Assembly: GCA_048886685.1 (NCBI GenBank)
Contig: JBHLKM010000004.1
Coordinates: 18,486-82,485 of the forward strand
DNA: 64,000 nt
Direction of reading: 5' to 3'
Origin: Candidatus Hodarchaeota archaeon
GTDB taxonomy: Archaea > Asgardarchaeota > Lokiarchaeia > Sigyniarchaeales > SOKP01
Position numbers and translations under genes: made by a program. The notes below the pieces were generated by a model. The model was not told the DNA's origin and made no database searches. It was given only the letters and a program-made list of their open reading frames with translations. Below are positions 58,921-61,119 of this stretch, piece after piece (positions within the stretch are counted from its first letter, which is position 1; the number at the start of each line of letters is the position of its first letter).

Positions 58921-59286
58921 ATGGGAAAGGTTTCAAAAGTTTTATTGCTATTAAAAGATATGATATATGAATCAACAAGTCCATTAGAAATAATTCGATT
59001 TGCTAAATATTATAAAAATAAAGGACTTGATGTGACTATTGTCCTTTGGGGACCAATGGGAATTATCCTTGGAAAAAAGAATAAAATTGGGAGAATGCAA
59101 TATGATGATGAAATATTGGAATGCCTGAACATAGGGATAAATTTCAAGTGTTGTGATCTTGCTGCTAACCTTATTGGTTTAGATAAATCTGAATTGATTG
59201 AAGGTATTGAATTAGTCGAATCATATGTAGTTGCTGATTTATTATTACAATATCAAGAAGAAGGACAATTGATTTTCTCACTATAA
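58921..59286 (+). CDS. DsrE-family protein
   Basis: VTIVLWGPMG..CCDLAA..LIEG. Confidence 0.7.
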   Translation: MGKVSKVLLLLKDMIYESTSPLEIIRFAKYYKNKGLDVTIVLWGPMGIILGKKNKIGRMQYDDEILECLNIGINFKCCDLAANLIGLDKSELIEGIELVESYVVADLLLQYQEEGQLIFSL

Positions 59287-59316: not shown

Positions 59317-60252
59317 TTAATAATGATCCACTTCTGGATGTACTTCATTAACAAATTCAAAATTAAAAATCTTCTCACGCGTAAGCTTTTCTTTAATGTA
59401 GCCTAATCTGTGCATAGTATTGATAAATCCTTCTGTTGATTTTAAATATCCTTCTGAAAGAGCTATGCAATATTTAGGAGAGATTTCAAGTACAGCTTTT
59501 ACATATTGCTTTTGGTTATTGAGAATTGTAAAAGTTCTTGATATCGTCTCTGCTGCTTTATCTTGAGATTCTCTGAGCAAAAAAGAGGCTTTCTTATGAT
59601 GTTTAAGGAATATAATCACCAATTCGGGATAATCCTCTATTAAAGATTCATGGAAAAAAATGCCGTAGCTAGGATTATTTGCTAATAAATAATGTGCTGG
59701 AATTACTAAATGAGAATTTAAAATCGTTCTTGCAAAAACTGCTAACGCAGGAGTTCCTACACCTCCTTCTAATATACCCCTTTTCATATCAATTGCTATG
59801 AATTCAGCTTGTTTGTAATTTTTTACTTTGATATCATTTTTTAAATTGTGTTTTTCTAAATAGTAGTTGAGGATTGCGTCATGTATAGAGCCAATACTTG
59901 GAGTTCCTATAGAAACTCCTTTAAATTGGAGGAGAGTTTCATAGATACTGTCATCTAAATGTGATATAGGTTTATGGTTTGGTTTACCAATCATAATTGT
60001 TCCCTCTACATGACCCCCAGCGACACACTTGATAGGAACTGAATTGTCTATTCCTATTATCGCAGGGGGTAATCCCATATAACCTATATCCAATTCACCT
60101 TTTTTAAAAGCTTCTACCATAAGGGGTCCCGTGCCGAATAGAAACCATTTAACCTTAATTTTCAAGTCTCTTTCCAGCTTATCATCTCCCATTAAAATAA
60201 AATTTGTATGATATGCCGTTGAAAGATGACCAATCCTTAATTCTTTTTTTAT
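59317..60252 (-). CDS. SsuA/NMT1(THI5)-like type II binding-fold protein without signal peptide
   Basis: GPLMVEAF..GELDIGYMGLPPAI, GSIHD; the frame extends upstream of ATG 60192 as IKKELRIGHLSTAYH. Confidence 0.8.
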   Translation of the reverse strand: MKKELRIGHLSTAYHTNFILMGDDKLERDLKIKVKWFLFGTGPLMVEAFKKGELDIGYMGLPPAIIGIDNSVPIKCVAGGHVEGTIMIGKPNHKPISHLDDSIYETLLQFKGVSIGTPSIGSIHDAILNYYLEKHNLKNDIKVKNYKQAEFIAIDMKRGILEGGVGTPALAVFARTILNSHLVIPAHYLLANNPSYGIFFHESLIEDYPELVIIFLKHHKKASFLLRESQDKAAETISRTFTILNNQKQYVKAVLEISPKYCIALSEGYLKSTEGFINTMHRLGYIKEKLTREKIFNFEFVNEVHPEVDHY

Positions 60253-60391: not shown

Positions 60392-60679
60392 TTGCTTAAT
60401 GTAAAAATAATATTTTTATCTGTTTTGGTTGACATTACTGAAATCGAGGAATTAACTCTTCCTATAGATGATGGATCGAATATAAGAAATATATTGAAAC
60501 AGCTAACTTCAAAATTTGGGAAGAAATTTGAAGAAATGATTTTTATAGCTTCAGAAGATTTAAGTAAATATGTAATAATTACAATCAATGGAAAAGACAT
60601 TCGTACTTTAGATGGGCTTAACACAAAAATACAGCCAAATGATGAAATTTCTTTTATACCAGCTATCGCAGGAGGATAG
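60392..60679 (+). CDS. MoaD/ThiS/SAMP ubiquitin-like sulfur carrier
   Basis: INGKDI..DGLNT..DEISFIPAIAGG C-terminal diglycine. Confidence 0.9.
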   Translation: MLNVKIIFLSVLVDITEIEELTLPIDDGSNIRNILKQLTSKFGKKFEEMIFIASEDLSKYVIITINGKDIRTLDGLNTKIQPNDEISFIPAIAGG

Positions 60680-60769: not shown

Positions 60770-60851
60770 GCCAGCGTATCCGAGTAGTTAAGGAGGCGGC
60801 CTGCAGAGCCGTTGCTTTTCAGCATCGTGGGTGCAAATCCCACCGCTGGCT
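60770..60851 (+). tRNA. tRNA-Cys(GCA) with long variable arm
   Basis: Acceptor stem GCCAGCG/CGCTGGC, anticodon arm GCGGC-CTGCAGA-GCCGT, T arm GTGGG-TGCAAAT-CCCAC, U73 discriminator, G37; CCA not encoded. Confidence 0.92.
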
Positions 60852-61119
60852 CTTATATCTTCATTTCAAGACCAATAAACCTTGAATTCATAACTATAAA
60901 TATTGGTCTACGGATCTCTTTTATTGTTCTTATTATATACTTAATTAAAAAAAAGAAAAAATAAAGAGTGATAAAACTGAAAAAAGGACCAGTTTGCTAT
61001 GTTTATTATGCGATAAAAAATAAGCGTCAATCAAAATTAAAAGAACAGAAAAAAATTCCAGAAGAGAAAGAAATATTCTCTCAAACCGAAATATATTTTA
61101 CTAATCAATAAGATTGTTC

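Follow-up and report, generated by a model that had tools for sequence, protein, structure and literature searches.

Long variable arms are markers of the serine, leucine and selenocysteine tRNAs and of bacterial tRNA-Tyr, and such an arm is the main handle for SerRS. Class I synthetases, e.g. CysRS, reach the acceptor stem through its minor groove, on the side of the D loop, and class II synthetases, including SerRS and SepRS, come from the side of the variable loop. The selC* tRNA-Cys and the allo-tRNAs of bacteria were reportedly described by Mukai et al. in 2017. These bacterial tRNAs are Sec-like (PMC7609411, PMC5424206, PMC9499178, PMC8762117); they have an 8/4 or 9/3 acceptor/T arrangement and a longer anticodon stem, and often occur with a dedicated CysRS* or SelB* (PMC7609411). 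A full-text literature search found no published long-arm tRNA-Cys in Asgard archaea, nor an archaeal long-arm tRNA-Cys with a 7/5 geometry.

The tRNA-Cys gene treated here lies in a window of 64,000 nt (G000:C4:18486-82485), the window being the whole stretch of DNA that was analysed. G000 is the assembly studied; it consists of 4.4 Mb in 47 contigs and is rated 100% complete with 8.4% contamination. The gene, its parts and its neighbors are:

58921-59286, plus strand: DsrE-like gene, upstream of the tRNA-Cys gene
59317-60192, minus strand: NMT1-like gene, upstream of the tRNA-Cys gene
60392-60679, plus strand: ThiS/Urm1-family sulfur-carrier gene whose product ends in Gly-Gly, 90 nt upstream of the tRNA-Cys gene
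60770-60851, plus strand: tRNA-Cys(GCA) gene, 82 nt, from sequence reading, ARAGORN and Rfam RF00005
60770-60776, plus strand: acceptor stem, 5′ strand GCCAGCG, pairing with CGCTGGC at 60844-60850 (7 bp, G1:C72)
60779-60794, plus strand: D arm, TCCG-AGTAGTTA-AGGA; 13:22 is G.A and the loop is without the usual GG
60796-60812, plus strand: anticodon arm, GCGGC-CTGCAGA-GCCGT; anticodon GCA at 60803-60805, G37 at 60806
60813-60826, plus strand: variable arm TGCTTTTCAGCATC, 14 nt; stem 60813-60816/60821-60824 (TGCT/AGCA)
60817-60820, plus strand: loop TTTC of the variable arm, with the unpaired 3′ tail TC at 60825-60826
60827-60843, plus strand: T arm, GTGGG-TGCAAAT-CCCAC; G at position 55
60851, plus strand: discriminator U73
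Downstream of the tRNA-Cys gene: a metallo-beta-lactamase-fold gene and a nitroreductase gene

ARAGORN calls a tRNA-Cys(gca) at 60770-60852. Rfam RF00005 identifies the sequence as a tRNA with a score of 55.1 bits (gathering score 29, model positions 1–71), with the extra bases aligned as an insert of the variable region. The tRNA-Cys identity set is present in the sequence, i.e. anticodon GCA, U73 and G37. CCA is absent from the 3′ end of the gene, the following bases being CTT. The acceptor/T geometry is 7/5 and the D stem consists of 3 bp plus the G.A. Sequence, ARAGORN and Rfam thus bear out the description in the earlier note of a tRNA-Cys with a class II-type arm, Cys identity elements and the atypical T loop TGCAAAT in what is an Asgard archaeon. 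The ThiS-like and NMT1-like genes flank the tRNA-Cys gene in five related genomes of the same genus, g1 (G003, G017, G020, G024 and G026), which speaks against contig C4 being a contaminant.

No second tRNA-Cys was found in G000 by a whole-genome ARAGORN search with introns allowed, or by a structural scan anchored on the acceptor end. ARAGORN shows many intron-containing tRNAs in this genome. It also lists a tRNA-Sec(tca) at C1:221073-221165 (minus strand) and a tRNA with the anticodon cta, labelled Pyl, with an 8-nt "intron" (G000:C7:6016-6116, plus strand), which may be an artefact.

In the minimum-free-energy fold the tRNA-Cys forms a cloverleaf with the 4-bp variable stem in place, and the single-sequence fold is only weakly better than shuffled sequences (z = −1.85). 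The strong evidence for the predicted variable stem is comparative. Twenty distinct arm-bearing sequences, which align unambiguously, were used for covariation. All four stem pairs are standard in 100% of the cells. Two of the four show compensatory changes: pair 8–15 is found as CG, UA or GC, and pair 9–14 as CG (8) or UA (8); the two closing pairs vary by G.U only. The covariation score was reached by no shuffle, slid registers drop to 37%–70% pairing, and the T stem behaves like the arm stem. Stems found are UGCU/AGCA, UGCU/AGCG, UGCC/GGCA, UGCC/GGCG, UGCC/GGUA, UGUC/GACA and UGGC/GCCA, and several copies have 3-bp versions capped by GAAA or GCAA tetraloops. With 14 nt the variable region is above the 10 nt that mark class II tRNAs, and it forms a stem-loop with covariation. 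Purifying selection on the arm stem means that the hairpin matters structurally; neutrality of the arm does not follow.

The layout of the arm is a 4-bp stem directly after position 43, with no 5′ spacer, a loop of 3–4 nt and an unpaired UC. The same layout is present in the G000 tRNA-Ser(CGA) (GCGC-GUAA-GCGC-UC) and tRNA-Ser(GCU); the tRNA-Leu arms differ.

A covariance model built from the gene was run on 149 genomes of the order, and the best match per genome was parsed. The loop class could be assigned in about 118 of the 149. An arm of 12–14 nt is present in 54 of these: 22 genomes of g1 (the genus of G000), 23 of g20, four of g22, one of g23, and all four of family f4. The remaining genera of family f1 and the families f2 and f3 have short loops of 4–5 nt, as do some species of g1, g20, g22 and g23. 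Nine tRNA-Cys genes of other Asgard families were read from a sample of 150 genomes of the phylum, and all of them have short loops. The earlier note had raised the possibility that a long arm is the documented norm in this lineage. The arm is indeed common in the order, as the 54 genomes show, but a paper documenting it was not found.

Three types of tRNA-Cys gene can be distinguished. In type A, which mostly adjoins cysS, the T loop is UGCAAAU and GG is missing from the D loop; genes of this type come with and without the arm. Type B combines UUCAAAU with a 5-nt loop, and introns are frequent in it. Type C is marked by UUCAAAU, a canonical D loop with GG, U8-C9, a 4–5-nt loop, U73 and GCA. 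A BLAST search with a type C gene found none in G000, where the only tRNA-Cys is the arm-bearing type A.

One pair of genomes will be used to show the relationship between the two forms of type A. The arm-bearing gene of G116 (arm TGCTTTCAGCATC) and the short-loop gene of G064 (loop TATTC), both from g20, are identical at every other position. The arm thus is a discrete insertion in a tRNA-Cys body, which was not remodelled from a tRNA for Ser or Sec. The earlier note had offered a Ser- or Sec-type ancestor as a possible origin; this is rejected, since the body is orthologous to the short-loop tRNA-Cys and the acceptor/T geometry is 7/5 and not Sec-like. The marks of a tRNA-Sec or selC* tRNA (a 13-bp 9/4 or 8/5 branch or a modified 8/4 branch, and an extended D stem) are absent from the sequence.

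The basal genera carry a short allele with the same TATTC loop. The arm allele is nearly identical in g1 and g20, and a 12-nt form of the arm, TGCGCAAGCATC, is common to f4 and a g1 species. On an RpoB DNA tree of 80 genomes the arm state needs at least 11 changes, and an arm-bearing genome may have a type B genome as its sister species, as in the pair G013 and G018. This pattern would be better explained by a redistribution of two old alleles, through exchange or differential loss, than by repeated de novo gain.

The T loop UGCAAAU (60832-60838) and the D loop without GG (AGUAGUUA, 60783-60790) recur in short-loop tRNA-Cys genes of other Asgard families (loci L298–L309). This combination of loops is not special to the arm-bearing gene. 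This recurrence suggests an altered elbow contact, with A18/G55 replacing G18/Psi55, that is specific to tRNA-Cys throughout the phylum.

In several g20 and g22 genomes (loci L076, L077, L103, L104, L106 and L107) the tRNA-Cys match begins only at the D stem. In place of the first 10 nt, GCCAGCGTAT, the match has GTTT(G/A)CGCAA before it. The tRNA-Cys genes of these genomes may therefore be split, or have a long intron, at about position 10/11.

Introns are a regular feature of tRNA-Cys in this order. They are found in the D loop, at 33/34, at 37/38, in the variable region (~45/46, ~30 nt) and in the T loop (~59/60), and some genes have two. The intron-bearing loci are L026, L028, L058–L072, L079, L085–L092, L099, L121, L123 and L124; the shortest intron appears to be about 12 nt. 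This abundance, which includes the variable region, favors a reading in which the extra 8–9 nt of the arm are themselves a mini-intron, cut out after transcription by a relaxed or novel processing activity so that a 4–5-nt loop remains. The occurrence of otherwise identical genes with and without the arm and the number of changes on the RpoB tree resemble an intron polymorphism. Excision of GCTTTTCAG would leave TCATC, a loop sequence present in G133, and introns down to about 12 nt in length exist in the gene family.

The arm was examined with a bulge-helix-bulge (BHB) scanner that requires a 4-bp central helix and a 3-nt bulge 3′ of each strand, and places the cut behind the second base of the bulge. 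For the 37/38 and T-loop introns it returns the junctions that were expected. It also picks up the inserts of ~30 nt that type B genes have in their variable region; these have a 6-bp inner helix and give the product GCCAT-TTATC-ATGGG, as in the intron-less orthologs. Calibrated on these real introns of the same gene family, it found no consistent BHB motif around the arm in 18 distinct arm-bearing genes, and a BHB mini-intron is rejected; the possibility that the arm is a non-canonical intron, which the earlier note had named as fatal to its proposal, is not borne out. Candidate cuts at the arm vary among orthologs, are without flanking helices or 3-nt bulges, and would take part of the anticodon or T stem and so destroy it. 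The sole recurrent candidate is the arm's own hairpin, with neither outer nor inner helix, and it is absent for the 3-bp versions with GNRA loops. The insert would be shorter than any intron in the set (at least 12 nt). The length of the arm is fixed at 12–14 nt over two families and GNRA loops occur, features that the true introns in the set do not have. Several tRNA-Cys genes have a true intron and the arm together. Removal by some other processing activity is considered improbable, and most likely, judging from these gene sequences, the arm stays in the mature tRNA.

The enzymes that could charge this tRNA were sought in the same genomes. G000 has a CysRS at C12:84251-85663 (511.6 bits, cut-off 340). 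No SepRS was found in G000, where the best match is 70 bits (cut-off 381) and is presumably PheRS, and no SepCysS, with a best match of 26 bits (cut-off 365). The earlier note had suggested that the arm reflects charging by SepRS/SepCysS. With both genes absent from G000 this is rejected for its tRNA-Cys, and in related genomes the phosphoserine route goes with type C, the opposite of what was suggested.

CysRS is present in 130 of the 149 genomes, irrespective of arm state. There are two CysRS lineages in the order, with a mutual identity of 37%–41%. One adjoins the tRNA-Cys gene in most of the order (loci L283–L297). The other, which G000 shares with most of its genus, is not linked to tRNA-Cys; the two lineages occur together in G013 and G018. 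The arm-bearing tRNA-Cys is found with either lineage and hence does not depend on a co-evolved enzyme; co-evolution with a dedicated CysRS is rejected.

SepRS was found in 53 genomes and SepCysS in 48, mostly the same genomes. Their distribution bears on another explanation, in which the arm acts as a discriminator: it would keep the CysRS-linked tRNA-Cys from the class II SepRS/SepCysS system, or it could be fixed only where the phosphoserine route is dispensable for this tRNA. In its full form the arm would be a natural identity switch in a cysteine system of two tRNAs and two enzymes, blocking SepRS or SepCysS while invisible to CysRS. The ancestral Promethearchaeia would then have kept type A, with its odd elbow and its place beside cysS, for CysRS, and the canonical type C for SepRS/SepCysS. 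Class II synthetases do approach from the variable-loop side, according to textbook geometry. In family f1 any SepRS match is present in only three of the 50 arm-bearing genomes (G124, G129 and G139), and in G124 and G129, which are less than 75% complete, SepCysS was not found. Both SepRS and SepCysS are present in most genomes whose type A has the short loop. The type C gene is present in 33 f1 genomes (loci L310–L339, e.g. L310:1501-1573), of which 32 also encode SepRS and/or SepCysS and the remaining one is 61% complete; the gene was found in none of the 54 arm-bearing genomes.

The phylogenetic contrasts are few, however. For arm and SepRS on the RpoB tree about four of ten independent contrasts are informative, three in opposite directions and one in the same (sign test p ~0.6). 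The anticorrelation is lost as a result after this correction and is reported as a lead only. Type C against the arm gives about three opposite contrasts and none the same (p 0.25), and type C with the Sep enzymes about three the same and none opposite (p 0.25), again from few independent contrasts. Family f4 also provides counter-examples: all four arm-bearing genomes have a SepRS match (full-length in G038 and G040, fragments in G042 and G044), and G038, G040 and G042 also have SepCysS. In addition, f1 genomes that keep both routes have a short-loop type A; thus the arm is not needed to separate the routes. The discriminator is considered unlikely in its general form, and the identity switch just as unlikely. 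If true, the arm would be a naturally evolved orthogonality element, which could explain the rarity of the phosphoserine route in arm-bearing genomes.

Judged from gene content, the phosphoserine route in the order goes with the separate, canonical tRNA-Cys gene, and the arm sits on the CysRS-linked lineage. The type C gene is often 15–20 kb from rpoB. A second, short tRNA-Cys that is type C-like is present in G040 (f4) beside the arm-bearing gene, and its contig has a GC content of 0.61 versus 0.49. No second short tRNA-Cys was found in G038, G042, G124 and G129, genomes that are 72%–88% complete. G139, an arm-bearing genome, is the closest relative of G000 on the RpoB tree. Its sole SepRS match is a 295-aa fragment (276 bits) with an in-frame TAG at a contig end (G139:C13:4-870). 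This fragment may be what is left of a phosphoserine route in decay.

The likeness of the arm to those of the G000 tRNA-Ser(CGA) and tRNA-Ser(GCU) raises the question of a dual Ser/Cys identity; serylation with subsequent conversion had been named in the earlier note. SerRS would serylate the tRNA-Cys, and the serine would be converted on the tRNA or misincorporated at Cys codons. That SerRS does not read the anticodon, as textbooks have it, is in keeping with this. The G000 tRNA-Ser genes read (GGA, CGA and GCU), however, all have G73, and the tRNA-Cys has U73 and the anticodon GCA. Its D arm is not Ser-like, having an 8-nt loop without the extra 20a/20b bases, and would orient the arm differently. 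The converter of phosphoserine, SepCysS, is absent and a full CysRS is present. Furthermore, as the sole tRNA for Cys codons it would bring any ambiguity to every cysteine. A dual identity is therefore regarded as highly improbable.

Two observations were made on discriminators of tRNA-Ser in other Asgard families. Locus L302 (G271), at about 1501-1585, combines the Ser anticodon GGA and a long arm with a Cys-like acceptor GCCAGGA/UCCUGGC and U73, and the tRNA-Ser(GCU) of two other families seems to have A73. The discriminators of Asgard tRNA-Ser may not be fixed. Because they seem variable and the arm has the layout of the G000 tRNA-Ser, U73 alone may not guard this tRNA-Cys against SerRS.

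The best explanation, and quite a probable one, is that of a functional class I-type tRNA-Cys, the only one of a Promethearchaeia (Loki-type Asgard) archaeon, with a tolerated inserted arm that is kept in the mature tRNA, which is charged by the class I CysRS. A compact 4-bp hairpin would have been inserted at the variable loop of a class I-type tRNA-Cys body, and the mature tRNA would retain it as a short arm like those of class II tRNAs. The CysRS of G000 would attach cysteine directly, reading GCA and U73. As this enzyme is expected to approach opposite the variable region, the arm should be sterically harmless. The arm-bearing gene would be an old allele of the CysRS-linked tRNA-Cys lineage, patchily spread or lost among species.

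A class II-like arm is thus found on the sole tRNA-Cys of many Asgard archaea, beside two very different CysRS. This suggests that the boundary between class I and class II tRNAs can be crossed by a simple insertion with no change in amino-acid identity. It raises the question of how the SerRS and LeuRS of arm-bearing archaea reject this tRNA-Cys, and such genes are natural material for the design of orthogonal tRNA/synthetase pairs. A testable picture also emerges of how two Cys-tRNA routes may be partitioned in the closest archaeal relatives of eukaryotes, with the canonical gene going with SepRS/SepCysS and the odd-elbow gene by cysS. New here are the intron test calibrated on real introns, the correction of the SepRS association for phylogeny together with the counter-examples from f4, the two CysRS lineages and the association of type C with the Sep enzymes.

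Four known systems are closest to this gene. The archaeal BHB introns resemble the arm in being short insertions at non-canonical sites, in an intron-rich lineage where the variable region is included, but the arm is without a BHB or relaxed BHB, is shorter, and has a conserved length and conserved loop types. The canonical archaeal tRNA-Cys(GCA), a class I tRNA and a substrate of CysRS (and, where present, of SepRS), shares with it GCA, G37, U73, G1:C72 and the 7/5 geometry; the gene described here differs in having a paired arm of 12–14 nt in place of 4–5 nt, the T loop UGCAAAU with G55, and a D loop without GG. With the class II tRNAs (tRNA-Ser, tRNA-Leu and bacterial tRNA-Tyr) it shares a variable arm with a covarying stem, in the N4-loop-N4-UC arrangement of the G000 tRNA-Ser, whereas its anticodon is that of Cys, its discriminator is U73, its D arm is of class I type, and its arm is at the short end (3–4 bp). 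The bacterial selC* tRNA-Cys and allo-tRNAs also combine a long variable arm with Cys identity (GCA or UCA anticodon, U73). In contrast to these Sec-like bacterial tRNAs, which are minor extra isoacceptors, the gene described here is archaeal, has a 7/5 geometry and encodes the sole tRNA-Cys.
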